From Azolla caroliniana (lineage: Eukaryota > Plantae > Polypodiophyta), in assembly GCA_043228905.1 (NCBI GenBank), contig JBHGNT010000008.1, positions 992,001-1,056,000 of the forward strand: DNA of 64,000 nt, read 5' to 3'. The notes beneath the pieces were generated by a model that worked only from the letters and a program-made list of their open reading frames with translations, was not told where the DNA came from and did no database searches. The position numbers were made by a program, and so were the translations under genes. The stretch's first letter is position 1; the number at the start of each line of letters is the position of its first letter. Below are positions 2,484 through 55,238 of the stretch, piece after piece.

Positions 2484-5400
2484 TAACCCAATCCTTGAAT
2501 GCAATAAAATACTCGGATAACGCCTTATATGAAGACGTTAGAGGATAATCCTCGGGCCCTTGTTGCTAAGTTATACATCCAAGTTGTTTCATCATAACTT
2601 CTTGGATCTTCATGTACACCTTACGACTATGAAATTAGAAAACGAGATTAGAACTTTCAATTGCACCATATTGAATTCAATATCACTATTTGAAATACTT
2701 ACTTATTGAACTCAGTAACCACTTCTTCAAGGCTTAAAACTTTCGCCACAACCCTTGACAAAACAGACACAATAAGCTGCTCGTCCTTAATACCTTGCAT
2801 CGCTCTCCACAGAGACAACTTCATGTTGCGAGGCGCTTCTTCAATTGTCAAATCAATTTTCTTGGCCACTTGTGACTTTAATTCTAGTTGAGGGTCTACC
2901 TTACATTTCTTTTGTCGTTGACCCTTGACCTCCTTATTCTCCCACATTGAGAAGATTTGATATTGTAGGTCCCATACTTCTCCATCTCTAAAGGCAAGTT
3001 GAAACCAGGACTCATATTTCTGAAGATCATCAGACTTAACATTATCATCCACCACAATGCCGACTTCATGCAACTATTGACGTCGTTGGCCTGGATGTAG
3101 CTTCGCACCGAACTTTTGTTTGACGTCTAAATACTCGTGGTGGAAGAACCTTATACGCTCAATCGATGACATTTTCTGCCTATAGTCATTATCATTATTG
3201 TGGTCCCATGCCAACAACTTTGCCTCTTCAGTTGTGAAGCCCACGTAATTTTTGCACTCGGCATACTTGAAGAAGAAAGTCGTTGGATGTTCTCTCACAA
3301 GTTGCCGGCGTGCCTCCGCCAAATGCGATCCACCAATTACAAAGTAATTGTATTGATCATGCTTTCTAATGTCGAAATCTTCAATGGTTTCACATTCTTC
3401 GGGATCTACTATAACAATAAAAGGCACAATGGTAGCATGTGGATTAATTTTCATTTTTTTCTTGAGATTTTGAACATGCATTTGGTGTGGCTCTTTGATC
3501 TCAAGTGGTTTTCGTCTTGTTTTTTCATCTATAGGGGGCCGATGGATGTGGGTTATAGGCATATTAAACACTTGCCCTTTTCTGACCAGTTTACGTTGCA
3601 TTAACTCGCTCCGTATGTTATTCTGCTCGGATGAGAACACACCCGATGCCAGCTCAGCTCCTAGCGTCCCCTTAGTGTCCTCATCTTTGTTTGAGCTTGA
3701 TGAGTCAGAGTCCGACATTTTAGTGGTCTTCTTTTTTGTTGGTCTTGATTGCACTTTAGATGCCCTTTTCGAGGCCTTCACTAGGGAGGGCAAGGGCTCC
3801 CTTAGAGTTACATGGCCTTGTATATAAGGCCTCAAGGTGACAATAATGTTTTTGGAGCTTTCTAGATCTTTTTTAAACGATTCTGGCCCACATGATTCCT
3901 TTACTAGTAGATCTTCAGAAAGGTACACTTTACATACCCCCTTAGAGCACTCAATCATTACAAGTATGTTGGCTGAATCTGAATCTTCGTAGTCAAATCT
4001 TAGAATACGGCCATACATAAATGCGGTTTCATTTTCAAGCTGAACGTCGCCCTTCTTCTTTGTTGTATACAACACGACTTTTTTCTTGGAGTCAACGTAT
4101 TGCATACAACATTCCTTGTCCGTTAGATCACGGTCAGGAAGGTCCTCACCACCAGTAGTTGCTAACATTTTCTTTTGGCTGACCTCATTGGATGGTTGAG
4201 ATTTTGTCTCCTCATTGAAGAGAAGTTTTTTTCCTCTCTTCAGGTTCTCAGGAACTATTAGGGTCTGGGTCTCAATTGGAGAGCCCTATATCTAAAGCTT
4301 TATCTTCTTCACAGGTCGGCCTGACAAGTTCTCAAACGACCTATTTAAGAAAGGACATGCGAAAACATAAGTTAGGTGGTCACGTAGATTAAGGTTATAT
4401 ATTAAAATATACATAATTAGACGAAGATTAAAACTAGCAGGCGATTTGTGGTAAACTATAAATATCAATCATGTATTGAGTGAACATGATAGTCCTTTAT
4501 TTGGAAATCCATTCTAGTAAGGGCTATTCAACTTTGAAATTTATATATTTTAATAAGTATACAAGGATATATATCATCTTGAAGGGTAGGTATGACTTAT
4601 ATTGATTCCATATCCTTATTGTAGAGAATTTGCATATGACAGACTTAAATTTGGTATCATAAAGGTAATTCGTGGGTTATTTCTATTATTTTAAGCTATA
4701 ATAGGTCATAAAACCTTTTTAAGTAAGGCCCCTAGTTGTTACAGAATATGGCAAATGTCACTAAAAAAGTCTGAATTTGACAGAAAGTTTGGTATCTTTT
4801 CACACATATACTAAATTGTTCCCCCAAAGACACAATAATCCTGTTTAAATTTTGTGTTTTATACAGTAACTCGATATGTCGTATACAGTTCCTGTATAAA
4901 GTTTGTGTTTATACAGGAACTCAATACAGGGTATCGAGTTACACATACTTTACACGTTCTTATGCAAAACATAAACTTTAAACAGGAACTCAATACGGCG
5001 TATCGAGTTCCTTTATAAAACACATACTTTACATAGGAACTCGATACGGCATATCGAGTTCTTGTATAAAACACAAACTTTTTACAAGAACTCGATATGC
5101 TGTATCGAGTCCCTGTATGAAACAAGAACTTTATACAAGAACTCGATACGCCATATCGAGTTCCTGTATAAAACACAGACTTTATACAGGAACTCGATAC
5201 GCCATATCGAGTTCCTCTATAAAACACGAACATAATACAGGAACTCGATACGACGTATCGAGTTCTTGTATGAAACAAGAACTTTATACAAGAACTCAAT
5301 ACGCCGTATCGAGTTCCTCTATAAAACACGAACATAATACAAGAACTTGATACGGCGTATCGAGTTCCTATTGAAAGCGCAAACTTTATACAAGACCTCG

Positions 5401-5656
5401 ATACGGCGTATCGAGTTCCTGTTTAAAACAAAAACTTTAAACAGGAACACGATACGCCATATCGAGTTCTTGTTGAAAATGCAAACTTTATACAGGAACT
5501 CGATACGGCGTACCGAGTTCCTGTTTAAATCAAAAACTTTAAAGAGGAACTCGATATGGCGTATTGAGTTCTTGAGTGCTAAAACATATTTACAAAAATG
5601 CCCAGAGTGTCAGACGATTACCTGGAGTCTTGGCGCTCGATTTTCTGTGAAGACAT
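2484..5656 (-). pseudogene. ParB-like/DNA-methyltransferase gene, copy A (exons 1-3 only; in-frame stops)
   Basis: ORFs 3074-4168 and 2699-3073 closely match 25190-26803; exon 1 (MSSQKIERQDS) and GT/AG sites conserved; premature TAGs (e.g. 3074-3076); Copia inserted at start of intron 3. Confidence 0.9.
4867..5571. repeat. Array of 14 palindromic 25-bp repeats (GAACTCGATAC-GSC-GTATCGAGTTC), 51-bp period
   Basis: Units start at 4867, 4917, 4986, 5037, 5088, 5139, 5190, 5241, 5292, 5343, 5394, 5445, 5496, 5547; lies in intron 1 of copy A gene. Confidence 0.95.
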
Positions 5657-6493
5657 GGTGGACGTTGTCGATGCTTAGGGGGAGATCTGAGTTTGGTGCT
5701 TCGTGCTCTGTGTGCTCTTGTGCTCTTGTGCTTTGTTCTGCGCGTGTGCTTCGTGTGATTGAAATATGAGGAGGTCTTCCTATTTATAGGGATTGACCAC
5801 AATCACTTTAACCAGGGTTGGCAACCTTAAGGTTAGTTAGTTAGTAACCACAACACTTTAACCAAAGTTACTTTATTTAGTACCTAATCTTGAGTGTACC
5901 AATCACTCTCTAATGGATTTGAAATAAATGATGCTTATGAATGCATCAATGATTAAATAGTTAAACTAACATAATAATGATTATTTTATAGTCAAACTAA
6001 CATACAATGACTTTGAAGGTCATGAAGGAAGCAATGATTGAATACTCAAAGCAACATTTTTATGACTCTTAATTGCTTTATAGTAAAGATGTGGTCATGA
6101 ATGAACCAATGATTGAAAAGTCTTATATTTAAAAGGTGGGCCTGAATGAACCAATGACTGAGAAGTTCTATATTAATTATGGGTGCCATTAATTAACCAA
6201 TGATTTTAACTTTAAACCAGCATATATGTGGCTTGGTAATGATTGTAATATATTATACTTGATTTAACTTTATACAGACTAGTTTAAGTAATTATTAATA
6301 TGTTGAATACAATTATTATATTAAAAATAATATCTTTATTTATTCTATTAATATAATATTAAATAATATAGACATTATATTGAGGGAGCTTCTGTTTAGA
6401 GAGGAGTTTATATTTAGAGAGGAGTATATGCTTATCAGTTTTTTATGTTAGCCTAAGCACATAACTTAAACAACTTTGTGTGGACCTTAAGCC

Positions 6494-7060
6494 ATGAGTG
6501 AAGACTCACCATTCTCGATTGAAGAATATTATTTGTCATCAGACTCTTCGTTTTCTACCGAAGAGTATTGTTTGTCAACAGACTCACCATTTTCTATCGA
6601 AGAATATTGTCTGTCGACAGACTCACCATTTTTCTATCGAAGAATATTGTCTGAGCTCATCTTCACCTACAACGCCTGTGAATAATGACACATGTGAAGA
6701 GTTCTCTATTGAAGAAGACGATATTAATAAATATACGGAGAATGAAGGTAGTGCCAATGAAACATCGAATATCATGGGCGATGGTCACAACAAAGAATTG
6801 GATAGTAACAAGGTTACACCAACTTCTATGTAGGAAGAGAAATCTGGAAGCCCTACGCATATTAGAAGAATCCCACAAAGAATTCGTCTGGCTAGATTTA
6901 ACTTGGTGACATCAGATAAGCAGATTGGATTTGATGTCAAAAAAATATGTTGTGCTCGTGGTTGTATGTCTATGATTGGAAAATCAAAGTTGCGAGAATT
7001 AAGGCGATACTATTTTTCGATGACTGGTGATGAGCAAGACACTTACCTTGGGTCACATAT
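6494..7060 (+). pseudogene. 5' fragment of Sola-like transposase, copy A
   Basis: MSEDSPFSIEEY... matches N-terminus of the 926-aa ORF; frameshift near 6630, TAG at 6831, truncated after ...DTYLGSH. Confidence 0.92.
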
Positions 7061-13806: not shown

Positions 13807-15825
13807 ATGGCTCATTGTATTAATAATGTGAAGACAAATAGTCATAAAATGCTCTTGGTTCTAGCACTACTAATGCTATTGCTTGGTAATATTATGTTAG
13901 CTACAAATCTTACTATGGCTGCATCCAATTACAATAGGTAAACATGTTGGCATTAACATAATATAAGGCAATTGAAGATCATAAATTTTGTTTCCTCACT
14001 AATTAAGTGTGAAGTTTCGTTAATCATAGGAGCAAATACACTTTTTTATACATGAAATCATAGAAAGTTATGAAATGACGACATAAATAGATATAATTCG
14101 ACTAAGACCATTTAGTAGGAAACAAACATGTCATAACTAGGAAGTTGTAGCCTATAGGTTCCCCTCCTTGTGATTTATTTGTACTCTTATCTAATTTAGT
14201 TGGAGAGATGGTCATAATCTAGCAAGCTGATAATGCTAAAGTAGCTTGAAAGGTCTTTCACAATTCAGTTACTTGGATTTCCCCGAAATGAAGTTAAACT
14301 AATTCCACAATGAATCAATGATGTTTGAAAGTAATTGGTTATTTACTGTAAAGTTAGACAAATATAATATCTCAAGATTGTTTTTCATAATTTAAAATAG
14401 ACAAACGCTTTTCAAAAACCATGAAAAGTAGCCATTGCTATTTATCTACATATTGGAAGTTAAAAGTTGGCTAGAACAATTACATTGCAGGATTGATAAG
14501 TGTTGGCGAGGCGATACGAATTGGGCACAATCTCGGATGAAGCTAGCTGATTGTGCCATAGGCTTCGGTAGCAAGACCACGGGTGGGAAGGGCGGGAACT
14601 TCTACGTAGTCACCAATGACGGTGACGATATAGACAACCCCAAGCCCGGTATGTTACGCTATGGTGCGATCCAGAAAGGACCTCTCTGGATCTACTTCGG
14701 GGGCAGCATGACCATCAACCTCAAGGCACAGCTCCTCATTAGCAATGACAAGACTCTTGATGGTCGTGGCACCAATGTCCATATCGCGGATGGGCCGTGC
14801 ATTACGATTCAAGACGCGAGCAACGTGATCATACATGGTCTTCACATCCATGATTGTCATGGTGGTGACTCCGATGGCGATGCCATACGTGTCTTAGCCT
14901 CGCGCAACATTTGGATTGACCATAACTCCCTCTCCTCCTCCGCGGATGGCCTCATCGATGTCACCCATGCTTCCTCGCTCGTCACCATCTCCAACAACTA
15001 CTTCTCCGATCATGACAAGGTCATGCTCCTTGGCCATAGTGACACCTACTCCGCCGACACTGCCATGAAAGTCACCGTCGCATTTAACCACTTCGGCACG
15101 GGCCTAGTCCAACGTATGCCAAGGTAATAAATAATCGTCATGTACCCTTAATATTACTTCCTTACTTAAACTCAAGTTAATATTATATAATGGCCAAGCG
15201 ATCCTTCATTCATCAAAGCTGATTGCGAATGATTATTCGCAGGTGTCGCTTCGGTTACGTCCATGTCTTTAACAACGACTACGACGGATGGGCACAATAC
15301 GCGATCGGTGGTAGTGCCGCCCCCACGATCCTCAGTCAAGGCAACCGCTTCCGTGCGTCTGGCACAGTCAAGGAGGTAAATATTATATAGTAATGCACTT
15401 CTATTACATAAAGATTCAAACATCTATGAACCAGCCATTACATGCTAAACAACATTATTGGTCCGTGTCTTATAAGATTGTTGTTCTAGTGTTTATTACC
15501 TTGCATAGACCATACCATGAACCCAAAATACATTCAATACCTAGTACTCTATAAATGTTCATGATGTGTACTGTCTGTCACTCAAGTACTTATGGTTGTA
15601 ATGGGTGTATAGGTGACCCAGCGCCTCGACACAAGCGCCTCGGTGTGGCAGAAGTGGAGGTGGAGATCCATCAATGACACTTTCGTGGATGGGGCATACT
15701 TCGTGCAGTCGGGTACCAACACCGACACCATCGACAATGACACTTTGCAAGGTAACGGCGAGTTTGCCGCTTACATGACGGGATCGGCCGGAGCCCTCTC
15801 GTGCACGACGACATCGGCTTGTTAA
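13807..15825 (+). CDS. Secreted pectate lyase (polysaccharide lyase family 1), ~369 aa, 4 exons: 13807-13937, 14491-15123, 15243-15375, 15613-15825
   Basis: GT-AG introns join in frame (1110 nt); hydrophobic signal peptide in exon 1; IDKCWR, DGDAI, WIDH, DGLID, RMPRCR and YAIGGS motifs. Confidence 0.95.
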
Positions 15826-18895: not shown

Positions 18896-20820
18896 TTAAC
18901 GTCTGCTAAGGCCAAATTTAGCCCATGAGACAAATGGTTTACCAAAAATGGGATATTTACCCATTCATCGAAAGTAAAAAAATCAAAATAAGATAAAAAA
19001 TAGTTCTTAAAAAAACATGTTCTACAATGAAAAGATGTTATACTAGGCCTAATTTCATTTCCATCCAAGTCTCTCGAAGAGAAGCGGGAGGTCAAAGGGT
19101 TGCGATGTGGATGTGGCCCATGGTCCCAATGTAAAAGGTACCCCAACCATAGCTTCTAGTTGACGTAGCTCACGTTCCCTTATCTTCTTAATCTTTTCTA
19201 CTCCATGTCGACTTGTTTTGAAGCCCAACATCTGAGGGCATTTGGTTGTTCTATGTATTTCTACTTCCTCAAGGGAGAGGCTGAGCGGCGTAAGTGTATC
19301 CACATTCATCGTCTCCCCTTGTTCCTGAAAAATTACACTAGTTACATGTTGATGAATAGTAAAAGGGTTATGATTAACACTTTGTAATTTATTCTCCCTA
19401 TGTTGTTTTAGCTCTAAGATATACCTACCTAGTCTTTTTACACTCGGGGTATCTAATAGTTTGGAGAGGGTGGGAGAGGGTCCTAATATGTCTTGGTATT
19501 CCGCCCGTATCTCGGCATAAGTTGGGCACTTGCATGTGCAGTGATACTCATCCTCTATCTCTATGTGGTATAACCTACATAGTCTTTCCTCTCTTGGGAC
19601 TCTATTAGCTTGACCATTCTCAATCTCACGTTGGTGAGATGATATCTTAAGTTGTCCAATGGCCACCCTTAGTGCATTTGATAAGAATGTATCTAGATAT
19701 CTTGGTCGTGTAATAAAACCTAACTTAGAAAAGTGCAAGAAGTGTTCCTTATAGTACAACATTTTAGATGGGAGTGGCTCTCGTGGGGTGATCCATTTAT
19801 ATCGAGTGTAAATTTGCCATATTTCTTGGCGTATCACTTTATTACGGTCTTCATGAGAGATTAGAGTTTGATCAGTCCCATGGTTGTACTTAAGAGGAGG
19901 TAGGTTATTAATGTCTATGCCGTTTGCAAGTAACCAACTCACACAATGCTATACCAAGAGCTAGTGTCTCCAGATGTAGGTATGGATTGGGATGCCTCAA
20001 AGGCTCGACGGGATATCCTATCTTGTGGTTCTACTAACATCGGGGGTAGACTAAACTCTGCTCTAATAATGTCATGCGGTACTGTCGATTTGCTTCGGAG
20101 TTGACATGATAACATCATCACCAAAGGTCTCTCTAATTGCGTCCACATGAAGGATGGTAGACCTGGAGCCCATACTACTGATGCATACATGAGTGAAGGG
20201 GTCACTAATGAGTCGAAGAGCCATCCCTTAGTCCGTGGCTCTTGAAAGTATGCCTGGTGGCATTGTCTCTCTAAGAGTGAGAGGGATGCATACCCTCTCG
20301 TTAGCCTATCTTTGGTTGCCTGGGTCATCGAGAATTTACTTGAGCGAGCACTAAAAGTGACTCCCAAGTAGCAATGGGCCCGGTTTGGTTTCGGTTCGGT
20401 TCAGTTTCTTTGCCTTGAAACCAAACTGAACTGAACCAAACCATTTTATATAAAACGAAAAAACACGTTCGCGTTCACAAGTGGAAGGATCGCGCATAAA
20501 TGGAAGGATAAGGGTAATTTTAGGGGTTTTTCAATGATTTTACAAAACACATTGATACCAATATCATACAAGTTCAAACATACTATGAAAAAGGTTAAAA
20601 ATCCACTATTTTCGTGATTTAGAAGTAACTAAAAAAAGACGAATTTCAAAAACGTACATTCTCAATTTATATCACAAACTTTACAACCAATGTTATTTTA
20701 TAAGAAACGATTTTTGGGAAATCATAAGAATTCAAAACACATGATTTTATATTACTCGATTTGTTACAAGCGGAATGTAGTTACACTTAATAGCCAAATA
20801 TACATTCATGATAGAGTCCT

Positions 20821-23601
20821 TTACGGAGAATCACTACTATAACTAATATACAATGACGATTCCTCCTCATCATCCTCGGATGTACCAATCAGTGCATTAT
20901 CTTCGTCATAAACCAAATGGTTTGACTCTAGATTATATGTAGCAGATCTCGTTTGCCTTTGACTCGAGCCACCTTGTAGACCTGGTAATTTTTCTTTTAT
21001 TATATCTATTGTTGACTTCCTTAATCGTCCGGCTTTTGTAAGTGTGAAGTCGTACACGATGATATCCACATCAGAGATATCAAGGGTCGAGGTGTTACGA
21101 GTGTTTCGCTTCCTCTTCCTACCTCCCCTTCTTGTTTGGCATTCAATCATCTCCAATGTATACTTACCTGTAAAAGCATTTGCACTTCTAGTGTTGTACC
21201 AATGAACATTTATAGACTTGATCGTGTTTTCTATTTCATGCATTAGCACTTCTAGAATTTTACCAACCCAAAATTGGTGGCCATGTGAGTTCTCATCAGC
21301 CGGCGTTGCAATCAACATCCCCCCGCTGAGCTCTTGCAAATTTCCTTGCCATCTAGCTTCGGCTGCTTTGGTCATCCTTGGTCCCACATAAATGTCTCTT
21401 TGTTGTGGATGGACCAAGCTGTCATTAATCGCATTTACTAGTTGCTCCGGACTTCTATTTACGCGATCATGTTGCAGCGACCATGTGAATGGCGTTTCCA
21501 AATTCCAATTATCAACAGATACACAATTGTCTATAATTTCATTCCGATCACTATAAAATACATCCCACCATGACGTGTCTTGTTGTGCGGCATATTTCTT
21601 GGCGGCCTCAATATGCTTTCTTTTTTCTTCTAAGGCTTGGAGCCATGACCGTTTTTGTTCTGATACCAAGTCGCTCTGCAACTGTCCTTTCTTCTCAATT
21701 GGCATTTTCTTAGCTCCATGGACAATTGTACTCGGCATACAAAGTAATAACTGGCAACCACCTTCAGGTTCCCATGTTGTAGAAGATGAATATTGTTTAG
21801 CATACAAAAGTGTAGAACCACTTATTCCATTTTTCTTTATCAAAAAAATGTGATTGAAACTTATATTGTTTAACTGAGCAAGCACTTTAACATTCCCACC
21901 ACCCCCATCTAATATATATCTCTTAAAGTCATATACCTCCTTCAAGTGTAACACTTTTGGGCGTGGTGTATATGCATCACAAATGACATCAAATAGTTTA
22001 GGTAAAGTGAAAGCATCATGCCGAGACAACTGTCTGGAGAATGTGCTAAACATCTGATCTATATGGTCATGTGTGTGGCCAACCAAAAGGAAATTGACTT
22101 TCACTTTCCTAAACAATTCTAGGTTGACCAACATACTTAGATAGCCAAATACAATTGAATTTTTGTTCTCTCTAGCAGTATTGTCCAATTGAATGTATAG
22201 AACAGGGGGGAAAGGTTGTCCCCAAGACATCAAAACTCGGTGAATCACTGTAACTGTTAGGTTAGGGTCATTGTGAACATTGGGGTAAGTAATGAAGACG
22301 TGAAGTCGAACAGACCTATTATAAGCCAAGCATCCCACCAAGTGCATTTGAACAAGGCACTCATCATTGACATCTTTGGGGAGCCTCCGCATATGCGGCA
22401 AGCATGTCTTCTTCTGGTCCATGCCATCTATCATCAAGCACATGTATTGTTCGGGCCTCTTCAAACACTTCTCTCTATGATGCATCGCCTTCCTTCGTTC
22501 TAAGGATTGTGCCTCACGATGCTCTTGTAGTAACTTCTTACTCGTATCCTTTTCCATTGATGTCTTTGCACCTTTAGCCAAACTTTTAAGATTTGCACAA
22601 ATGGAGCAATACCCCATACGTACTTTACGAGGAATAATAACATTTGAAAACCGAGCTCTCCATAATCTTGTGAATTGGCTATAGGTGATAGACTTATTAC
22701 GTGAGCCCAGCATTTCAGATCGATAGACATCATAAACTTCCCGACGGGTATAATTATCAGAAAGATGCATCCTACCTGTAGTGGGCATTACTTCACAATT
22801 TAACTGAAAGTAAGTTTTCATCCAGCCAATAGCTAGTCTTCCAATTGCACCTTTCATACTTGGAACCTCTTTACAATTGAGCATCTGATCCCCGCTAAGT
22901 AGACGTTGTTGTACTCTATGTAGCCGCATGTTACTAACACATAACGCAATTTTGAATGCAACTCTACATATCTGTTGCGCATGGAAGATATAATACTCGA
23001 ATGATACTTTGATCCCCGTACATTTGTCAGATACTAGTTGCATATGTGATCCGAGGTAAGTGTCTTGCTCATCACCGGTCATCGAAAAATAGTATCGCCT
23101 TAATTCTCGTAACTTTGATTTTCCAATCATAGACATACAACCACGGGCACAACATATTTTGTTGACATCAAATCCAATCTGTTTATCTGATGTCACCAAG
23201 CTAAATCTAGCCAGACGAATTCTTCGTGGGATTCTTCTAATATGCATAGGGCTCCCAGATTTCTCTTCCTGCATAGAGGTTGGTGTAACCTTGTTACAGT
23301 CTAATTCTCTGTTCTGACCATCGCCAATGTTATTCAATGTTTCCTGGGCACTTCCTTCATTCTCGGTATCTTTATTAATATCGTATTCTTCAATAGAGAA
23401 CTCTTCACATGTGTCATTATTTACATTCCCTGTAGATGAGCTCAGACAATATTCTTCGATAGAATATGGTGAGTCGGTCGAAAGACAATATTCTTCAATC
23501 GAATATGGTGACTCTGTTGACAAACAATACTCTTCAGTAGAAAACGATGGGTCTGATGACAAACAATATTCTTCAATCGAGAACGGTGAATCTTCACTCA
23601 T
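20821..23601 (-). CDS. Sola/DUF7869-like DDD transposase, 926 aa
   Basis: Uninterrupted ORF; CCxxxC, CxxAF and CSIC Cys motifs; candidate catalytic motifs IDGMDQ, LDNTARENKN, VGHTHDHIDQMF typical of Sola-type RNase-H-fold transposases. Confidence 0.82.
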   Translation of the reverse strand: MSEDSPFSIEEYCLSSDPSFSTEEYCLSTESPYSIEEYCLSTDSPYSIEEYCLSSSTGNVNNDTCEEFSIEEYDINKDTENEGSAQETLNNIGDGQNRELDCNKVTPTSMQEEKSGSPMHIRRIPRRIRLARFSLVTSDKQIGFDVNKICCARGCMSMIGKSKLRELRRYYFSMTGDEQDTYLGSHMQLVSDKCTGIKVSFEYYIFHAQQICRVAFKIALCVSNMRLHRVQQRLLSGDQMLNCKEVPSMKGAIGRLAIGWMKTYFQLNCEVMPTTGRMHLSDNYTRREVYDVYRSEMLGSRNKSITYSQFTRLWRARFSNVIIPRKVRMGYCSICANLKSLAKGAKTSMEKDTSKKLLQEHREAQSLERRKAMHHREKCLKRPEQYMCLMIDGMDQKKTCLPHMRRLPKDVNDECLVQMHLVGCLAYNRSVRLHVFITYPNVHNDPNLTVTVIHRVLMSWGQPFPPVLYIQLDNTARENKNSIVFGYLSMLVNLELFRKVKVNFLLVGHTHDHIDQMFSTFSRQLSRHDAFTLPKLFDVICDAYTPRPKVLHLKEVYDFKRYILDGGGGNVKVLAQLNNISFNHIFLIKKNGISGSTLLYAKQYSSSTTWEPEGGCQLLLCMPSTIVHGAKKMPIEKKGQLQSDLVSEQKRSWLQALEEKRKHIEAAKKYAAQQDTSWWDVFYSDRNEIIDNCVSVDNWNLETPFTWSLQHDRVNRSPEQLVNAINDSLVHPQQRDIYVGPRMTKAAEARWQGNLQELSGGMLIATPADENSHGHQFWVGKILEVLMHEIENTIKSINVHWYNTRSANAFTGKYTLEMIECQTRRGGRKRKRNTRNTSTLDISDVDIIVYDFTLTKAGRLRKSTIDIIKEKLPGLQGGSSQRQTRSATYNLESNHLVYDEDNALIGTSEDDEEESSLYISYSSDSP

Positions 23602-24423
23602 GGCTTAAGGTCTAGATAGGGCTCTCTAAGTTATACTCCTCTCTAAACATATACTCCTCCCTAAACATAAACTTCTCTCTAAACAAAAGCCAAATCAATA
23701 GAATGTCTATATTATGTAATATTCTATTAATACAATACATCTAAAAATTATTTTTAATAAAGTAATTTTACTTAAATTATCAATCATTATATAAGCTAGA
23801 TCTAAATGATGTTAAATCAAGTAAAATATAAAACTAATCATTAACAAGCCTTGAATATGTTGGATTAATGTTAAAATCATTGGCTAATTAATGCCACACA
23901 TTTTGATATAGAACGTCTCACGCATTGGTTCTTTAATGCTCACCATTTTAAATATTAGACTTATCAATCATTGGTTAATTCATGCCCACATATTTAATAC
24001 ATAACATTTGAGAGTCATAAAAATTGTTGGTTTTAGTAATCAATCATTGGTACATTCATGAACCTCTATCATTGTCTCCTTCATAACCTTTGAAGTCATT
24101 GTAGGTTGTTATGACTATAAAAGATTGATCAATATGTTAGTTTGACTTTGTAATCATTAATACAATCATAAGTTACTCTAGTTAATGTGACTATGGTTAC
24201 CAACTAACTATCCTCAAAGTTACCAACATTGGTTAAGGTGACTATGGTTACTTTAACCATGTGTTCAATCCCTATAAATAGGTAGACCTCATCATATTTC
24301 ACTCACCAGAGCGTACAGAGTGTACAGAGCACACAGAACGTAGAGAGCACATAGAGCACACAGAGCACTCAGAGCACAAAGCACGAAAGCGCGATCTCCG
24401 CCTCCACTTCAACACGATCAACC
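23602..24423. promoter_or_regulatory. Divergent promoter region between transposase and ParB-MTase gene
   Basis: Head-to-head ATGs; CCTATAAATA at ~24271-24280 conserved in copy A (~5780-5789); clustered AATCATT motifs; AGAGCAC repeats in probable 5' UTR. Confidence 0.65.
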
Positions 24424-27400
24424 ATGTCTTCAAAGAGAATCGAGCGCGAGGACTCCAGGTAGGCCTCTGACACTGTGGACATTTTTGTAAATATGTTTCG
24501 TTTCTCAAGAACTCGATACGGCGTATCGAGTTCGTGTATAAATATTTGTATTGTATACATGAACTCGATACGCCGTATCGAGTTCGTGATTAAAGTGTAG
24601 GTTTTAAACACGAACTCGATACGCCGTATCGAGTTCTTGTTTAAAGTGTAGGTTTTAAATAGGAACTCGATACGCCGTATCGAGTTCGTGTTTAAAACCT
24701 AGACTTTAAACACGAACTCGATACGCCGTATCGAGTTCCTGTATATAAGAAGGCTTTGAGAGAGAAAAATCGTTTATGGGGTGGAAATGATATCAAATTG
24801 TCTGGCAAAATCAGTCTTTTTTATGTTGACTTTACTTACTTTTAAAGAAATACATGCTCTAATTATAGGGGTTTTATGACCTACTTTAGCTTAAAATAGT
24901 AGAAAATGATCTACAAATTGCCTTTACTATGGCAAATTCTCCTCAATATAGGTTTAGAATCTATATAAGTCATACCTACTATTTAAAAGAATATATAACC
25001 CGTTTTACTTATTACGATATATATTTTCTAGGTTGAATAGCCCTGCCTATAATAGATTTTTGAATATGTAGCTACTCCTGGAAACTGTTCTTCATTATAA
25101 TATACAACTTCAATCTACGTGACTGTCTAACTTATGTTTTTGCATATACTTTCTTAAATAGGTCGTTTGAGAACCTGTCGGACCGACCCGTGAAGAAAAT
25201 TAAGCTTCGCATACAAGGTTCTCCAATCGAAGCCCAGACCAAGGTAGCTCCTGAGACCATGAAGAGAGGAAAAAAGCTTCTCTTTAACGAAGAGACAAAA
25301 TCTCAGCCACATAGTGATGTTAGCCAAAAGAAACTTGTCGCCGCTACTGGAGGCGAAGACCTTCCTGACCGAGATCTAACGGACAAGGAATGGTGTATGC
25401 AATATGTTGACTCAAAGAAAAAAGTCGTATTGTATACAGCAAAGAAGAAGGGTGAGGGGCAGCTTGGAAAAGAAACCCCATTTATGTATGGCCGAATTCT
25501 ACAATTTGACTACGAAGATGCAGATTCGGCCAACATACTGGTAATGATAGAGTGCTCCAAGGGGGTACGTAAAGTGTTCCTTTTAGAAGACCTTTTAGTA
25601 AAGGAATCGTGTGGGCTTGAAGTGTTCAAAAAAGCACTTGATAACTCACAAAACCTGATTGTTACCTTGAGGCCTTATATACAAGGCCATGTAACTCTAA
25701 GAGATGAAGAGCCTGCCCCCTTGAAGGCCACAAAAAAGGTATCCAAAGTCCAGTCAAGACCAGCCAAGAAGAAGACAACGAAAATGTCGGATACGGATTC
25801 AACAAGTGAAAATGAAGAAGAGGATAATAAGGGGACGCCAGGAGCCGAGCTGGCCTCGGGTGTTTTGTCATCCGAGCAGAATAAAATAAGGAGAGAGTTA
25901 ATGCAACGGAAGCTGGTCAGGAAAGGGCAAGTATTTAATTTGCCTATAACACACATCCATCGGCCCCCTATTGATGAAAAAACAGGTCGAAGACCACTTG
26001 AGATTAGAGAGCCTCACCGCATGCATGTTCAAAATCTCAAGAAAAAAATGAAAATTAATCCTCATGCCACTGTGGTGCCTTTTATTGTTATGGTAGATCC
26101 TGAAGAATGTGAAACCATTGAAGATTTTGATATTAGAAAGCATGATCAATATAATTATTTTGTCATTGGTGGATCGCATTCAGCAGAGGCACGTCGGCAA
26201 CTTGTGAGAGAACATCCAACCACTTTCTTCTTCAAGTATGCCGAGTGCAAAATTTATGTTGGGCTCACAACCGAAGAGGCTAAGCTATTGGCATGGGACC
26301 ATAATAATGATAATGACTATAGGCAGAAAATGTCGTCTATTGAGCGTATACGGTTCTTCCACCACGAGTATTTAGATGTGAAACAAAAGTTTGGTGTGAA
26401 GTTACATCCAGGCCTTCGACGTCAATGTCTGCATGAAGTCGGCATTGTGGTAGATGATAATGTTAGGTCCGATGGTCTTCGAAAGTATGAGTCTTGGTTT
26501 CAATTGGCGTTTAGAGATGGAGAAGTATGGGACCTCCAAGATCAAATCTTCTCAATGTGGGAGAATAAGGAGGTAAAGGGTCAACGACAAAAGAAATGTA
26601 GGGTTGACCCTCAACTAGAATTAAAGTCACAAGCCGCCAAGAAAATTGACTTGACAATTGAAGAAGCGGCAGACGACATGAAGCTGTCTCTATGGAGAGC
26701 GATGCAAGGTATTAAGGACGAGCAGCTTCTTGTGTCGGTTTTGTCAAGGGTTGTGGCGAAAGATTTAAGCCTTGAAGAAATGGTCACTGAGTTCAATAAG
26801 TAAGTCTTTCAAATACTGAAATTGTAGTCTATCTGGTGTAATTCAAAGTTCTAATCTTGATTTCTAATTTTACAGTCATAAGGTGTACATGAAGATCCAA
26901 GAAGTTATGATGAAACAACTTGGATGTATAACTTGGGAACAAGTGACCGAGGATTATCCTCTAACGTCTTCGTATAAGGCGTTATCAGAGTATTTTATTG
27001 CATTTAAGGATTGGGTTAGTATTCATGTTTTTTCATTACCCTTTCATCATATGTAGAGCTTGTATAATAATACCTGATGTCCTATTGCTTCTATTAGAAA
27101 CCGTGTCAAGGCAAGAAACAAGGAGAAGTTAAGGATATACACGATTTCCCTACATCCTTCCTTGCACATCTCGAGCGAGCCAGAAAAGAAAAGGATCGTC
27201 GCTTAGTCAAGGCGTACGAAATGGAGGAAGATGGCTCGTTTAAAAAATTTAGCCACAAAAAAGATATTACGAGAGATCTTTTCTACAATGTGGTTTGCGG
27301 TGATGTCATCGACTTGATCCAGAAGGTGCCAAAGAAGGAATATACGCTAATGATTGCGGATATTCCTTACGGATTTCGAATGGCTGGGTCATCATACGAC

Positions 27401-28382
27401 GATGAACCGTTTAGGTTTAAACAATTGGAGAAGATGGTCAAGGATTTCGCTGAGCTAACGACCGCATCCTTGTGGCGAATAGTTGTCTTTCATAGTATGG
27501 ACCAAGGGTACTCGGTAGCTCAAGCTTTGAGATCTCGTTGCCATGGCATCGAGAACCTTGCATGGTAAGGATTATTTGTAGGTGTCTTTCATTATATTGC
27601 AATTCTTAAGGTTGTTGAATCTATTCTTAACTCGATGAATTATTTTTTATAGGATCAAGACCAATGTAAATAGAGGGCCAACTTTTCGGTTCGTTAATGC
27701 CATTGAATACATAACGGTTGGCTACTTCGATGAAATTAAAAAACAGAGAATCAAAGAGCATTCTAATGAAGTGGGAGGTTCAAATCTGTTGGTATATCCA
27801 GCAGTGACTCGGAAATTGCGACATGTCACCACGACAGAACGGGGACTTGTCAACCCATACCAAAAACCTCAACGACTTATGATGCGCTTGATCGAGATGT
27901 TTTCTGTCGAAGGAGACTGGATATTAGATCTCTTCTCTGGCATAGGTATTCCTCGAACTAGGGTAACGATCTTGAGATAACCAATCACTTTTTTTTCGTT
28001 TGACAACTAAATCTTCTATTACATCATAGGAACTACGTCAGCATGTGCATTGAAGCTGTTTAGAAATATAGTTGCATTGGAGAAGGACGAGGACCAAGTT
28101 ATATTTATTAATATGCGGATTAAGGCTTTGTGGGAGTGCCCAGACCAGGATGAGGAGGTCAGTGCAAAGAACCTCGCCAATACAGAAAGGTTTCAACCTG
28201 CTTCGCGAGAGCCTATTCCTCCGTTAGCCGGCGAACCGGGGGAGCTAATAGAGCTTGATGATGAGCTTATAGAAGATATTTCGTTGGCTCGGCTAACAGG
28301 GGAAACCAATGCACGTATAGCCGAAGACAGTTCTACACAAGATGATGAAGAAAATGACGTTGATGAATTGATTGCTATGTAA
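24424..28382 (+). CDS. ParB/Srx-like domain fused to beta-class N6-adenine/N4-cytosine DNA methyltransferase, ~974 aa, 6 exons: 24424-24458, 25162-26799, 26876-27014, 27098-27564, 27653-27945, 28030-28382
   Basis: All five GT-AG introns join in frame (2925 nt, no internal stop); ParB-like YFVIGGSHSAEARRQL and EEAKLLAWDHNN; MTase CGDVIDLI...LMIADIPY (motif IV), WIK, QKPQRLMMRLIEMFSVEGDWILDLFSGIGTT (motif I), VALEKD. Confidence 0.88.
24509..24738. repeat. Array of 5 perfect 25-bp palindromes (GAACTCGATAC-GSC-GTATCGAGTTC), 51-52-bp period, in intron 1
   Basis: Units at 24509, 24561, 24612, 24663, 24714; arms extend imperfectly into the spacers (TTTAAACAC...GTGTTTAAA). Confidence 0.97.
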
Positions 28383-31300
28383 TAGACTCTATAAAGAATA
28401 TGACACTGACGATTTGTTAAGATTTCACATTATTAATACAAATTTTGGGTTTTACCTAGTGGATTCTATTCTTTATAATCATCTATATGTTTCAATTTTA
28501 TTTTTATATACTTGATTAGTAGATTTATGATATTGGTTTCACCGCGTGCATAGCTGACTACCAAACTTATGGAGAAACATGAACTAGCTTAAATGGAGGC
28601 TGATTTTGGTCCAAGCTAACCTTAACAGAACATGGCCCTATAATTGTTGCCATGACTGTCCATGTTGTTATTATGGATCTTTGTCTTATATTGTTAAAAC
28701 TATTATGTTTCTATTCCATTGCTGCTTAGATTGTGTAGTGTGTTGATAATGGTTCCAGTTGCGTTATCGTTCGGAGTTTGATCTTGTGTGAATCACCTAA
28801 GCAATAGAGTAGATCAATTTTAAATACAGGTATGAAAGCCTAATAGGTTTGTTATTTCCACGACATTATCCTAAAGTTCACTGCCTTACATTGTGCACAA
28901 TTATATACACATATGGTTTGATCCCATATGAACAAACTGAGGAATAGATTAGATCAACTTTTAATATAAGTATTGAATACTTTAATAAGTTAGTTATTCC
29001 AATCACTTATCCTAATGTGCACTATCCTACATTTTCCACAATTACATACATGCACGTATGGGTCAAAGTATAAATTATATCTCATTTTATTAGTATGGAT
29101 ACAAGTACACCTCATATTTTTGTAAAACCTACCTAATTAATATAAGTCTTTAAGTTAGTGTTTCCCTTGTCGCACAATAGTGCCATATTGAGCCATAGTT
29201 GAACTTTATTATGCCTACATTAACTTATCAACATGTCTAAACTTGCATGATTTCTAATGATCTCCACTCGTAGATCTATCATGTATTTTTATATTTGCAA
29301 ATTCTTATCAAGTTGAGGAACATGTGATACTAGTGCATCCAATTATTGTAGAGAGGGTGTATTTGCTTCGTTTTAAGAAGATTCTACAAGTGGAATGCGC
29401 AATCCTTCCACTTGTGAACGCGAACGTGTTAAAACCAAACCAAACCATTTATGAACTTTCAAGCCATTAAACCAAACCATTTAAGAAAAGATAAACAAAA
29501 CTATTTAAACCAAAACCGTTTAAGGGAAAAGTTGAAACCAAACCAAGCCATTTAATAAAAGGTTTAAACCTAACCCCATTTAAGCCAAACTAATTAAAAA
29601 AATAAAAAAATAAAAAAACACTAAATTAAATAAGCATGTATGTTTAATTAATTAAATAAACATTAATTAAGCCATTAGATAAAATAAACATTTAAGTTAA
29701 GTGAATTAAATCAATAAAAAACATTAATTAAACCATTAAATTACATAAACATTTAAGGGATAAAAAAAAGTTAGCCAAAAACCTATAAACCTTTAAACCA
29801 AACCTCTTAAACCTATAAACCGATAAACCCCAATTTCAGAACCAAACCAAACTAAAACCGAACCGTTTTTTAATAATTAAAACCAAACCAAACCATTTAT
29901 TTATTTTGGAACTTATAAACCTTTAAACCATGGCTTAACAGTTCAGTTCGGTTTGAGCTGAAACCGGGCCCATTGCTACTCCCAAGTATACATATGATCC
30001 CACTACCTCAACTAGTTTATGAGAGACGGTTAGGTGACATTTACTCCTAACTTGGGACGATGTATGAAAGATAAGGACTTTAGTTTTCGTTAGATTCACT
30101 ACCAGTCCTCGTTGTGTACAAAAGTCATCTAGGGCATTAAGATGCTTTTGTAGGTCGTGTTCCGACTCCGAGAGCAAGACAATGTCATCTGCGTAGAGTA
30201 AGAGACTAACTTGCGTATCCCAATAACTACTCCCTTGCCTCCCTTTCGAGCAATAAAATTAGTGATCTCATCAATGTAGATCCCAAAAAGAGTCGGTGAC
30301 AAGGGGCAACCCTGTTTTTCACCAATGGTGCTAGTGAAACAATCGGATAGGCCACATGGGCATCGTACGCACCCAGAGACTTGCTGATATAAGGCATAAA
30401 TGGCCCAGATCATGTCATTTGGTATCTCCAAGCTCTTAAGTCTATCAAACAACTTCTCCCTAGGAACTGTGTCAAAGGCTTTGCGGAAGTTCACAAAGCA
30501 ACAATATAGTTTCTTCTTATGAGCCTTTGTTTGGTCAATTAAGCACCTAAGTGTGAAGATATGGTCAATAGTGGAGAAGGCTTGTCTAAAGCCAGCCTGC
30601 TCAGGTGCGCGATGACTTAACGTTTCCATATAATCGCTGAGCTCCGCTTCCATTACTGCACCATATAGTTTAGCGAGCATATGACCTATCATAATGGTCC
30701 TATATGTATTTGGGTCCATTGGGTCCCCTCATTTATGTATAGGGGCCACTGTGTTCATGGCCCATTGTGGTGGGCACGGTTGAAGATTAGAGTGAGAAGG
30801 GGGGCTAGGCACTCTCGAGCATATATGATGTGCTCGGTTCGCAATCCTGTGTGGTCCATGGATTTCCTATGTTGTAACTTTTTTATGACCTTCGTGACCC
30901 TAGAGGTCGTGAAAAGTGTCCCCATGGTAGGTCGAAGTGTGGAAGGCATTGGAATGGGTGGTTGGTTCAGGACATGGTAGAGTCTCTCGATATATGTGTG
31001 CCAAATATTGGGATCCTCGATGGGTGTTTATGGTCTCAGTTCCCGTATTCTCTTCCATGCAAGGGCGTAGTCCCTACTCATGAACATATGGTAGAGTTCC
31101 CAATATTGAGATTCTTCCCATGCTCGTCTTTTACGACTTGTCATCTTGCGCATCTCTTTGCGAGCCTGTACTGAGGAAATAGTACCGCTAAGTCGCGACA
31201 CCTTAAGTTGTCTATACAACTCTCTACAATCCTCATCATACCACTTGTTCTGTGGCATAGACCCTATTCTACTATGATTGGAACCTTTCGTGCATGGGAA

Positions 31301-34300
31301 ACTACTAGTTGTTGCTGAGTGAAGGATGTGTGTGAGTTCTATAGTGAGGTTCTCTAAAGGCAAGGAAGAATCAAAAGAGGAGAGATGGGCTTGTACATGT
31401 CAAGAGTAGATGTAAATGAGCTCATGCGTGAAATGTATTATGGTGTGATGGGTTGGTTGACTAGAGTTGGTGGCGTGGGAGATGTCACATTTTAGCTCAA
31501 AGTATAGGAAGCTATGGTCTGCACCAATGGGGCATGGGGCCACTCGGAAGGAGCTAACCATGTGGGTAGCTTCAGGGCATCCTATTAGGTAATCAACTGT
31601 GCTTTCCCCTCCTCCATGTGGGAAACATGTGAGCTCTTCTGAGCCCGGCCACTTGGCTAAGCCATTATATACGATCATCTAGTGTCGGCTTCCAAGTTCA
31701 AGCAGATGATGGCCAATGCTTGTGGTGTCTGCACCTTGATCTTTTGATGTACGTGTTATGCCTAAGGCTAAAGGGTCGATATTCACCATTTCTAAGTTTC
31801 TATCCATCTGAATTATTGTGCATTGTTGGGATTGGGTTCTCGCATTAAAATCCCGTACAAGGAAGACTTCCCCTTGAGAAGAATATCGGATTATGTCATC
31901 CGATAAAGGTTCGTATGGAGAAGGCCCATGTGGCGTTCCTTCATCAACTATACTCGCCTCTCCAGCCGTATTATACCGGGATCCTTTCGGAGGGAAGTAA
32001 CAAACGGCGATAAATATCACCTGATCCTTGCTAGTGAGGATTTTCACCCACATAAAAAAGGCTTCTAGGTCTTTCTTTAGTATTTCTATCCTATTATGTA
32101 TCTCTCTCTGAAATGATATCACAACCCCTCCAGACCCTCTAGTAGTGTGTCGACATGATGTTTGTCTAAGGACAGATTCCCAACAAAAACCGTCAACTCG
32201 TGGCAGTCCTCGATTTGGACTTTGATGTGTTTCTACTAAAGAAAGTATATTAGATACCTTCAAAATGTCCTCTAGACGGCCAGGGTGTGTCCAAAGTGCA
32301 CCGTTACAATTCCATAAGGTCATCCTAAGTTTATTGTCTGTCACATGGGCCACACGCCATCAATTGGCAACGCGATCATTAATTATCACACGTCCGTCTC
32401 GATAAAAAGCACGATGCCCCTCTTTACGAGCTTGTATGATTCGCGGCATACAAGTTTTACGATGGTCAATTTGTATCTTGGTCAAGTCTTCATCGAGGTA
32501 GATAGGGTCCCCGCCCAATCCTTGAAGAATTGGTCTCTTTTTAAAAAAGGTGATCCTTGATTCTGAGTCCTTAAACTGAAGGACAAAAGCTCTTTTCCTA
32601 GTGGTGTCACGTCCTACTCTCCAAGTTTTAGTGATTGGTAGGGCTTCGTACCCCAACATCTTCCCTAATGTTTGTGCATCTTTGTCAGGAGATGCCCCTT
32701 CCTTGAGCCAAGTAACTCTTACGTTTAAGCGTCGAGTTGCGTAGACGAGAGAGTGTAGAAGCACATTTGTACTCTCTCGTCTACGCAACTAACGACGTCG
32801 TAAGAGGTGTAGGTGACATCGACGGTTGAAAATGGCAACTGTGGCACAAACCAAACAACGGCAAAGGACATAGCAATAGAGGCACCAAGTAACCAAGATG
32901 TTGCGAGAACAACGAAGGCCAGGTGGGCCGAAACGAGCAACGGTGATCCTACGTGGGTAGCAGCATGGAAAGCTACTAAGGACACCCAAGTGGGGAGCGG
33001 TGTGTCGAGCCAAAAAGGGCACACCCAAAAGCGGATCGGAAGACGTGTGTGTGGCCATCGAGGGTTGAAGTAAAGCACGGGTACAGGAGGGTGTTCGGCA
33101 CAGGCGGTGCCGAGCAAGGAAGGTGGAAGACGACAGATGGTGGTGCCGGGTCGGAAACCGGGCGTGGGATAGGCTGCACGGGTCGGTAGCCGGAAATGGT
33201 ATCGGTGACCGAAGGAGTATCCTCCACACGCACTTCAGAGACCTCGGCAGCTCAGTCGGAGTGGCAATGACTCGCGTGGCAAGCCAAGCCCGAGATAACA
33301 AGCTGGTGGGGGCGAGGGGACGACAACAAGTGTATGGCCGAACCAGTTGCAGTAGCGCGGAATGAAAGGGGCCAAGGGGGCTGACACGGGGTGTTCCTCG
33401 AACGCGGAGGACACCGGTATGCAGAGAAATGACAAGCGGCAATACACGATCTGGTCGGGGGAGGGTTGAGGAAGCGTGCATGGGGGGAAGACTGGAGTTC
33501 AGCACGGGCGGTGCCGAGCAAAGGAGGATGGCGGACTGAGCCTCTTGCGAGGCGAAGTCAAGGGTTACGCGACACACGGAGGTGCCGGATGAGAATACGG
33601 GCGCAAAGATAGGTTGTTCGGGTTGGTAGCCTCGAAGAACATCGACGGCCCAAGAAGGATCCTTCACAACAGTTCCGGTGACCCCGATAGTTCGGCCGAC
33701 GTGGCAATGTGAGACCGAGGGAGATGGACGGTGGCGGCAAGGGGACAAGGGCAATGGTAAAACAACGGCATCGGACAAGTAATCAAGGCATCACGACGAT
33801 CAACGGAGGCCAAGCGGGCCATTACGGGGTGTTCCTCAGACGCGGAGGACACCGGTATACGGGGAAGCGAGGAGCATGCATAGGGTCAATCAAGGGCCAC
33901 ACGACGAGCACGCGTACGAGAAGAGATCGCGGAGAACGACCTATTGAATGGTCGAACGAGCCTACTAAGAGGCAAGCACGAAGGAGGGACCGGACCCGAC
34001 GGTTCGGAACTGGCGGAGGCCAACACGGCAGTTGGGATGCGGATTACGGAAGACCGGTTGCTCGTTATGACCGGAATCTCTCACGCTTCTTTGGATTGGC
34101 ACGTACTGGTGGACATGCGGTTTGGTGGGGGCGGATGTCGTGAAGATTCCCGGCCTTAGCGAGAAAACCGGGACTAATGGGAACATTGGCGGGGTGCGGT
34201 GTGGGCAGCCACCCTTGTGTATACGTGCAAAATAATATGGGCGCCTTTATGGCACCAAACATGAGTTAAGTTGGGACAGAGAATCCCATGTAATATGGGA

Positions 34301-51800: not shown

Positions 51801-51881
51801 TCTTCACGACATCCGCCCCCACCTAACCGCGCATCCTCCGGTATGCGCCAGAGAGTTGGGACGGAGAAAACCGGCCCGTCT

Positions 51882-54800: not shown

Positions 54801-55238
54801 CAGTAGGAACCCGCCCCCACCGATCTTCAGCTCGCGGAGCGTCTCGTTGGTGAAGGTGTGTCCTATGCAGGCCGGATCTCGTAAGCTGGGGTCCGATGCA
54901 ACCCCTTTGATTCGGGATTCGCTGCCCTCCGGTAAGGGCGCCGCAACTGGCCTCACCTTCCGGTCCACCGTCTTGTACTTGGTGCTCACTCGGGCCGTCC
55001 GTTCCGACTCGAGCCCTCGACCGAAGTCCGCGATGACTTCGTACATTTCTTCGGAACATACCGGTATCGTCCGGTCTTCGTTAAGGTCTTCTTCGACTAC
55101 CTTCCCCAGCATCCCCAAGGTGTCGTCGAAGGAGACTGCCTCCACGGCTCCGTTGATTCCTTCGTCAGGGCCGAGAACTCCGCACGCCTGAAGTCTCCCC
55201 TCCGTCTTTGTTTTCTCTCGGCCGGTGATGCCGACCAT
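51882..55238 (-). CDS. Gypsy Pol (RT-RNase H-integrase), probably reached by -1 frameshift from Gag-PR
   Basis: DLYSGYDQ, LPQG, FLDD RT motifs; DTS...ADMLSR RNase H; H-H-CxxC and D-D-E integrase; GPY motif; no chromodomain seen. Confidence 0.95.
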   Translation of the reverse strand: MVGITGREKTKTEGRLQACGVLGPDEGINGAVEAVSFDDTLGMLGKVVEEDLNEDRTIPVCSEEMYEVIADFGRGLESERTARVSTKYKTVDRKVRPVAAPLPEGSESRIKGVASDPSLRDPACIGHTFTNETLRELKIGGGGFLLPMEEDRFRRMLGRHGKAFAFSPEEIGCVDPTIVEPMVIFTVPHVPWNLKPISVPRAHIPMLMELLKQKVDMGILEPSSAPYSNRWFTVPKKNGSLRFIQDLQPVNRVTIRNAGIGPTIDEFAEAFAGRSIYSVGDLYSGYDQFQLAVESRDITTMRTPLGLVRMCTLPQGGTNSVAHMVNAMNKVLRDCIPDITMPFLDDIPIKGCPVEEKDETVGPDGCRRFVMAHIDDCEKVLQRLEVARLTFSGEKSAFGQSEIMVVGHLCGPYGRKPSPAKVEAISAMKPDCSSVTEVRRFLGACAFYHIWIPHYAHVAEPLYGLLKKGRRFEWLDKHAESVRKLKEALSAAPALRKAVYGKGTPVYITVDTSPTGIGWVVNQEDGDGNRFPIRFGAKVLSERQRGYAQVKRELWGIVSAVKTDKDYLIGTEVIIETDCMPILGMVYGCATPDLAMLRWIAYIKSLDPEIRHISGKDNAMADMLSRARFDDEGAMVSEDEEVGVDFFEAAYVTTGGSSTPALNDFDASKYDGEWLQIGGFLRTMAPDASWTKDEANRIRKKAYRFFLRDGYLWKHPKKRNGVPLRVVAMKEDQEELLAACHDSPWAGHRGTWATFEKLKGKYWWPGQYRDVHRFVTTCESCQMHSIVRHRDELHPTYPPTIHFKWMVDLVTMPMGVGQMRYLVLAREDLTNQVEGRALPNKTTAAVCRFLIEDVICRYGCVGKIVADRGELDTEEAAELFDRLGVKLSLTTAYNPEANGKVERGHGPIVKALVRACGGQVGNWPRLLPYALWADRTTHSSVTGYMPTELMFGQKPIMPMERTISSWATVDWRDEMSREELLAARIRQLERRPEDVELATERLRVARAKNKARFDRTHRLRPKKIEEGDWVLVYDSSLDNQHRATRKFARRWFGPYAVRSANGNGTYHLAELDGTRMAIPVAGKRIKAFKKRHDDEPDPALLVSSDERSENEEEPTGEE

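Follow-up and report, generated by a model that had tools for sequence, protein, structure and literature searches.

The window analysed here, a 64,000-nt stretch of contig JBHGNT010000008.1 from Azolla caroliniana, carries an intact DNA transposon (20462-29430) in which an accessory gene lies head-to-head with the transposase gene. The accessory gene is supported as a stable, selected cargo of this mobile element. Its product is predicted from structural models to consist of a ParB-like and helix-turn-helix (HTH) region fused to a beta-class amino-methyltransferase, and its first intron holds a regularly spaced array of palindromes which, on sequence grounds, are likely binding sites of the ParB-like protein. 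The accessory protein may bind these palindromes in its own gene, methylate nearby element DNA and keep the shared promoter usable against host silencing by 5-methylcytosine (5mC), a proposal for which the chances appear about evenly balanced.

A preliminary description of this DNA had reported 35-bp terminal inverted repeats (TIRs) enclosing an intact Sola-like transposase and a head-to-head, intact spliced gene with a palindrome array in its first intron, and this arrangement was confirmed. The features of the element are as follows.

20462-20496 (+): left TIR, 35 bp, starting with AACAC
29396-29430 (-): right TIR, 35 bp, with one mismatch to the left TIR
20458-20461 and 29431-29434 (no strand): 4-bp AAAA flanks, a likely target-site duplication
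20821-23601 (-): transposase gene, an intronless single open reading frame (ORF) of 926 aa, matching Pfam DUF7869 (E 1e-51)
23602-24423 (no strand): intergenic region separating the two divergent genes; TATA-like box at 24270, followed ahead of the accessory start codon by 9-bp repeats of the CAGAGCACA type at 24307-24378
24424-24458 (+): accessory gene exon 1, 35 nt, encoding a short basic peptide
24509-24738 (no strand): array in intron 1, five perfect 25-bp palindromes with a 3-bp centre and the core CGATAC-N3-GTATCG
25162-26799 (+): exon 2, with an N-terminal domain (~aa 85-195), a ParB-like N-domain (~aa 270-405) and a helical, HTH-like region (~aa 405-557)
26876-27014 (+): exon 3, helical linker
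27098-27564 (+): exon 4, with DIPY (aa 692-695), a variant of catalytic motif IV
27653-27945 (+): exon 5, with an NPYQKP motif and the first part (DLFSG) of motif I, which binds S-adenosylmethionine (SAM); matches PF01555 (E 1e-7) and the DNA methyltransferase phrog_67 (E 5e-8)
28030-28382 (+): exon 6, with the rest of motif I, the remaining strands, an acidic tail and the stop codon

Accessory gene and its ParB-like and HTH regions

The accessory gene has six exons and five introns, all with GT-AG borders, and encodes 974 aa with no internal stop. The exon structure is a predicted one that gains support from the conservation of the exon borders. Of the 15 related loci examined, 9 have an ATG exon of 35 nt whose donor phase is identical. 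Two runs presumed to be RNA had no reads over the accessory gene, and a further run of unstated type contained unspliced DNA, which speaks neither for nor against expression. The related loci referred to throughout are the best 80 of 131 found in metagenomes, all from one series of related assemblies, and they form 12 families at 80% identity.

AlphaFold was used to model the latter half of exon 2 from an alignment of 28 rows, with a mean confidence score (pLDDT) of 78. In a Foldseek search with this model, the best match was ParB (7bnr, E 2e-5), and Spo0J and Noc were also recovered. Superposition with VIA-align gave PadC at Z 10.2 (root-mean-square deviation, rmsd, 3.1; 100 residues aligned) and pNOB8 ParB at Z 8.4 (rmsd 4.3; 205 residues aligned), as well as weak matches to the DNA-binding domains of KorB (Z 4.7) and ParB (Z 3.7). 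Hence, the modelled region is predicted to hold a ParB/Srx N-domain followed by an HTH-like domain. By sequence, searches of Pfam and PHROGs gave no significant ParB match (DUF6551 appeared only at E 0.02-0.1), and PDB sequence searches gave nothing informative. The ParB region likewise had no sequence relative in phage records or prokaryote genomes, which suggests that the acquisition is old or that the donor is unsampled. A search with the same region also found no annotated full-length relative longer than 954 aa, which is weak evidence.

The N-terminal domain that precedes the ParB-like region (aa 85-195; window positions ~25380-25710) is conserved from ferns to Ginkgo. It has no Pfam match and is under weaker constraint, with ratios of non-synonymous to synonymous substitution (dN/dS) of 0.08-0.26.

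In ParB proteins that form a clamp with cytidine triphosphate (CTP), Box II reads GERR and contains the arginine patch GxxRxxA. In the family described here, Box II is GSHS in every one of the 49 rows free of stops (of 68 locus rows, 20 had been removed for stops) and G-G-x-H in distant homologs. As the arginines of Box II are replaced, ParB-style sliding, or the spreading suggested in the preliminary description, is doubtful. A more elaborate form of the self-marking idea depends on it: the ParB part would load at the phased array as at a parS-like site, slide over the element as a nucleotide-gated clamp, and write a private mark of N6-methyladenine (6mA) or N4-methylcytosine (4mC) that defeats 5mC silencing, in a system kept since before the split of land plants and Chara. 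If so, ferns, Ginkgo and liverworts would hold non-5mC marks written by a transposable element (TE), and the protein and its site would amount to a compact programmable epigenetic writer. This version is considered unlikely.

Methyltransferase domain

The match of exon 5 to PF01555 exceeds the curated Pfam cut-off, in line with what had been expected for this domain. The motifs occur in the permuted order IV to I, with DIPY at aa 692 preceding DLFSGIGT at aa 852. Motif IV is conserved as ADIPYG in 42 of the 43 rows free of stops (of 44 locus rows, 2 had been removed), and takes the forms DFPY, DLPY, DAPY or DIPH in distant homologs. The DLFSG of motif I is found in 38 of 40 rows, the remaining two being clipped by the end of the alignment.

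Because the domain is split over three exons, its structure was modelled on the single-ORF homolog P0052 (pLDDT 83), whose homology to the accessory protein was established by hhalign (probability 100) and by alignment. The P0052 model matched the CcrM/RsrI/PvuII-type fold in Foldseek (E 9e-14). In VIA-align, it matched CcrM at Z 23.3 (rmsd 3.5, 221 aligned), M.BceJIV at 22.4, M.MboIIA at 21.3 and M.PvuII at 20.1, and the matches, including the bdelloid N4CMT, span Z 19.5-23.3. The prediction that the accessory protein combines a ParB-like/HTH region with a beta-class amino-methyltransferase is therefore a prediction from two models, one of each part, and both folds agree with those named in the preliminary description, that of the methyltransferase by way of P0052. 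P0052 had no relative in viral contigs. Phage methyltransferases match the accessory protein in the methyltransferase domain only, with 23-29% identity among the 25 listed of 574 matching records.

Palindrome array

The array starts 50 bp past exon 1, and its palindromes are spaced by 52, 51, 51 and 51 bp; the divergent genes begin 0.1 and 0.9 kb from it. In the related loci the array is conserved, located in intron 1 and helically phased. The core, generalised as CGATRC-N3-GYATCG, was found at least once in 33 of the 36 related loci with at least 1.2 kb of upstream sequence (hand count), although it was derived from the searched loci themselves. Outside the searched core, the arm positions are complementary in 171-179 of 195 distinct sites, though their sequence changes between families. 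The spacings cluster at 31-33, 40-43, 50-54, 63 and 72 bp, with modal units of 32, 40-41 and 50-53 bp. For 60 family-level spacings, the mean cosine at a period of 10.3 bp was 0.62, a value reached in none of 20,000 random draws, although the spacings share ancestry and include sums of units, and 10.3 bp was the best of six periods tried.

One alternative is that the array is not a loading site for the methyltransferase: the transposase or some host factor could bind it, or it could act as a hairpin RNA or cruciform, while the enzyme uses a short target of its own. The folding of the array as RNA is far stronger than that of shuffled sequences (z -24), and a very stable RNA hairpin could form. 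However, the fixed 3-bp centre and the whole-helical-turn spacings, which hold across families of different unit length, argue for a protein site on double-stranded DNA and not for a hairpin RNA. There is no resemblance between palindrome and TIR. Moreover, the core is nearly constant, as is the presumed recognition helix (SxG[LI]RKY[ED][SP]WFQLA), among families whose TIR sequences vary widely, which points to the ParB protein as the binder rather than the transposase. The predicted presence of an HTH like that of ParB and KorB, and the inverted-repeat arrays that likewise adjoin ParB genes of red algae (10.1101/2025.02.11.637652), are further points against this alternative, which is held to be quite unlikely. 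The palindromes are thus likely to be sites of the ParB-like protein, as candidates defined from sequence comparison.

Conservation, selection and distribution

Both genes occur together in copies of the element, as had been anticipated: a head-to-head transposase gene was found at all 12 loci whose upstream sequence reaches at least 2.4 kb, and at 13 of 15 when at least 2 kb was required. Trees of the transposase and of the ParB region (12 rows) contain three identical clades, the ParB side being weaker, with one starred branch only. Where dS could be estimated without saturation, dN/dS was 0.01-0.02 in the ParB region, 0.03-0.11 in the HTH region and 0.01-0.05 in the methyltransferase exons; the transposase core gave 0.05-0.10. 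Strong purifying selection acts on the accessory gene in its ParB, HTH and methyltransferase parts.

Ceratopteris richardii has a homolog at 72% across the region queried, and others were found in Ginkgo biloba, Adiantum nelumboides, Riccia sorocarpa and Chara braunii, several of these proteins with PF01555, and the named profile matches were all from streptophytes (20 looked up among 150 listed of 756 found). Chara braunii has at least 12 paralogs, on scaffolds of differing lengths. The reading that the accessory gene is merely carried along, or was picked up by chance from the host, is at odds with the very low dN/dS, the fixed head-to-head layout, the congruence of clades down to ~61% transposase identity and the Chara paralogs; it is largely refuted for this element family and retains hardly any probability.

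Two proteins, P0036 and P0116, differ in architecture. One is a Chara annotation with two tandem ParB-methyltransferase units (1825 aa), and in the other a SAM domain is linked with the helical part.

Transposase and element termini

The DUF7869 match, together with neighbours in the Atlas, places the transposase in a widespread eukaryotic family. DUF7869 is presumably linked to the Sola family, and D392, D473 and D515 are taken here, from the appearance of the surrounding motifs, to be the candidate acidic triad. No paper naming DUF7869 was found in the literature search.

The two TIRs were the only matches to one another at up to 11 mismatches in the 64-kb window. The AACAC start is invariant at all ends of related loci, while the adjacent outer base is variable, and TIR pairs are also present in loci L027, L031, L035 and L054. 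A 4-bp duplication was seen in two of the five TIR-to-TIR elements, namely AAAA in the window and TGTT in L027; L031, L035 and L054 have none and may be collapsed contigs. In A-rich DNA, the AAAA duplication is weak evidence alone, and the 5-bp flanks differ between the two ends. Neither AAAA nor TGTT fits the AWWT target preference of Sola1 (PMC3845634), but the target bias of Sola1-1 from Ectocarpus, described as 'ending in A', differs as well (PMC12477816). This lowers confidence in the Sola1 assignment without overturning it, and the element is likely to be an autonomous, Sola1-type cut-and-paste transposon.

The N-terminus of the transposase contains a 39-bp tandem repeat at 23443-23593 that encodes acidic units resembling FSIEEYCLS. 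The second copy in the window has this repeat too.

Second copy and deletion derivatives

The second copy was expected to repeat the layout of the intact element, and does so in part.

2484-7060 (-): second copy, dead and truncated, with transposase aa 1-190, exons 1-3 with stops and a 14-unit array at ~4870-5570, and no TIR

It lies in the opposite orientation, with ~87% identity in the coding part. The partial transposase gene, the first three exons and the array are as described, whereas TIRs and methyltransferase exons are missing and the reading frames contain stops. Decay of its array has occurred mainly at CpG, affecting 14 of 112 CpG positions as compared with 4 of 196 others, which is consistent with host 5mC on the array.

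Two deletion derivatives bear on a further possibility, that the ParB protein and its site serve a transposition intermediate by tethering, protecting or positioning excised elements in the manner of parS, with methylation marking donor or daughter copies. Such a role would suit the complete ParB N-domain and HTH architecture predicted from the models, and the repeat layout resembles that of sopC. A derivative in L013 has also retained the array despite the loss of most of the gene. On the other hand, the element has no ParA-like gene, Box II is non-canonical, and locus L054 (506-6549) is a TIR-to-TIR derivative from which the promoter region and the array are deleted. This role is considered very unlikely.

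The derivative in L013 (3280-5883) belongs to another family and retains the array together with a TIR and part of exon 2. It is inserted in intron 5 of a methyltransferase gene of the element family described here.

Comparison with known systems

The closest published design is that of Sola1-1_Ec32 from the brown alga Ectocarpus, which carries on the opposite strand a gene for a 1104-aa protein that joins a ParB-like domain to an N4/N6 DNA methyltransferase; the authors suggest that proteins of this kind bind the element encoding them and modify it (PMC12477816). The same paper cites Iyer et al. 2011 for green-algal cases. Both elements have a two-gene, opposite-strand design within TIRs, and their termini share AAC (AACCG in Ectocarpus, AACAC here). 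Sola1-1_Ec32 has a 4-bp target-site duplication; here, two of the five TIR-to-TIR elements show a 4-bp duplication, likely of the target site. It is 21.5 kb long with an imperfect TIR of 282 bp, whereas the land-plant elements are 7.6-9 kb with TIRs of 34-37 bp and the protein has 974 aa. The likeness is one of described layout, and the accessible part of the Ectocarpus description mentions no palindrome array or phasing.

In Plavaka elements of Bostrychia and other red algae, which carry the accessory genes PAG2 and PAG3, a ParB gene lies beside tandem inverted-repeat arrays, and self-binding has been proposed (10.1101/2025.02.11.637652). These elements also carry a PF01555 methylase and a ParB-like domain, and the best HHpred match of the latter, 7BNR, is the top Foldseek match obtained here. 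However, their transposase is of the EnSpm/Plavaka type, and separate genes encode a ParB fused to a 2-oxoglutarate oxygenase and a methylase fused to a SET domain.

The basic design and the idea of self-marking are therefore already published for algae, and the novelty of the design suggested in the preliminary description does not hold. Its narrower remark, that it knew of no such cargo described in a plant element, stood: the literature search found no land-plant description of such transposon cargo, with subscription papers, the original Sola paper, Iyer et al. 2011, Repbase entries (e.g. Sola1-1_PPa) and bioRxiv supplements outside its coverage, and the accessible parts of PMC13076208, PMC12695648, PMC5751038 and PMC9033089 hold no description of it. 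New here are the occurrence in land plants, the intact copy, the defined and phased candidate site, and the evidence of long-term selection.

The VANDAL/VANC system of Arabidopsis and TnpA of Spm also involve an accessory protein of a plant DNA transposon and tandem target motifs in the non-coding DNA of the element (PMC5735166; 10.64898/2026.08.24.746577). Their anti-silencing is likely to be a functional analogue. The proteins are unrelated, and they cause loss of 5mC, whereas a writer domain is predicted here (PMC5735166; 10.64898/2026.08.24.746577). VANC targets vary considerably between related elements, while the core found here is conserved (PMC5735166).

Among bacterial systems, ParB, Spo0J, Noc and KorB with their parS-type sites resemble the modelled protein in the combination of N-domain and HTH, and the array in its palindromic site, here in phased repeats. 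They differ in Box II (GERR as opposed to GSHS), and the plant protein has a methyltransferase fusion and no ParA. The methyltransferase part resembles the beta-class enzymes CcrM, M.BceJIV, M.MboIIA and M.PvuII in that motif IV precedes motif I and in its fold (Z 19-23). It differs from DN4MT1 of Marchantia, a host gene with no extra domain, in being TE-borne and ParB-fused and in having D-[I/F/L/A]-P-Y rather than TSPPY as motif IV (10.1101/2021.02.12.428880), and from the bdelloid N4CMT, a host gene with a chromodomain fusion, in the same TE-borne, ParB-fused context (PMC8885841).

Proposed role of the accessory protein

In the proposed mechanism, a dimer of the HTH region would quite probably read the two CGATRC half-sites of a palindrome. 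Half-sites are read in this way by ParB on parS and by SopB on sopC repeats. Spacings of 3-7 helical turns would set the dimers on one face of the DNA and allow cooperative loading, and long-range, CTP-dependent sliding would not be needed. The fused enzyme is very probably active. The mark would probably be 6mA rather than 4mC, given that motif IV has an Asp and given the nearest fold matches. The system may serve to activate the element's own two divergent genes or to shield them from silencing, in trans on every copy that keeps the sites, though its purpose may equally well lie elsewhere. A precedent is provided by VANC, which binds tandem-repeat targets in its own elements and brings about hypomethylation (PMC5735166).

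A number of points weigh against this proposal. Motif IV is D-I-P-Y instead of the canonical DPPY, the Asp, second Pro and Tyr being kept and the first Pro replaced, and the methyltransferase fold is taken from P0052, which is ~30% identical, and not from the accessory protein itself. The core is missing in 3 of the 36 loci, and in L074 it is confined to an unusual position. A search for covariation of HTH residues with variants of the site revealed none. L054, which has both TIRs and no array, leaves it doubtful that the array is needed in cis. Finally, nothing found tells an activating outcome from a repressing one.

The last point leaves room for the main rival, the same binding and methylation with the opposite purpose, in which the protein would regulate itself by repressing or timing its own promoter and that of the transposase, or would gate transposition. 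KorB and ParB repress their own operons, and Dam methylation gates IS10. The position of the sites in the first intron of their own gene, 50 bp past exon 1, is typical of feedback, and the fold search also gave a match to KorB (Z 8.8, rmsd 10.4, 131 aligned). However, decayed copies appear to have been struck already by host CpG methylation, which makes an extra silencer less needed, and known TE accessory proteins with tandem targets activate (PMC5735166; 10.64898/2026.08.24.746577). Autoregulation is thus possible but on the unlikely side, and self-activation is preferred.

Self-marking by transposons has been proposed from algal genomes, and the accessible parts of that literature contain no test of the idea. 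With an intact, compact 9-kb copy and a site defined to 15 bp with a spacing rule, the hypothesis becomes directly testable. Land plants have been said to have few N6A-methyltransferases (PMC4738411). If the proposal is correct, they carry a multi-copy amino-methyltransferase of bacterial type in their mobile DNA, from Chara to ferns and Ginkgo, and this would be a possible source of localised 6mA or 4mC.

Genomic surroundings of the element

The 9-kb element is nested in a hAT-type miniature inverted-repeat transposable element (MITE) at 20369-29978, which has TAG termini and an 8-bp duplication, CTCCCAAG. This MITE in turn splits a region of long interspersed nuclear element (LINE)-like reverse transcriptase (ORFs at 19055-20400 and 29935-32359). 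Joints that bypass the 9-kb insert are contained in three DNA runs. In the same runs, the read depth of the element is far above that at the neighbouring joints, which fits the presence of many copies and gives no copy number.

One apparent host gene lies nearby, an ORF at 14432-15127 (+) that presumably encodes a plant pectate lyase, going by its motifs. A Gypsy-type long terminal repeat (LTR) retrotransposon occupies 51009-58237, with open frames of 787 and 1172 aa. Its terminal repeats are identical over the 300 nt compared, which indicates a recent insertion.

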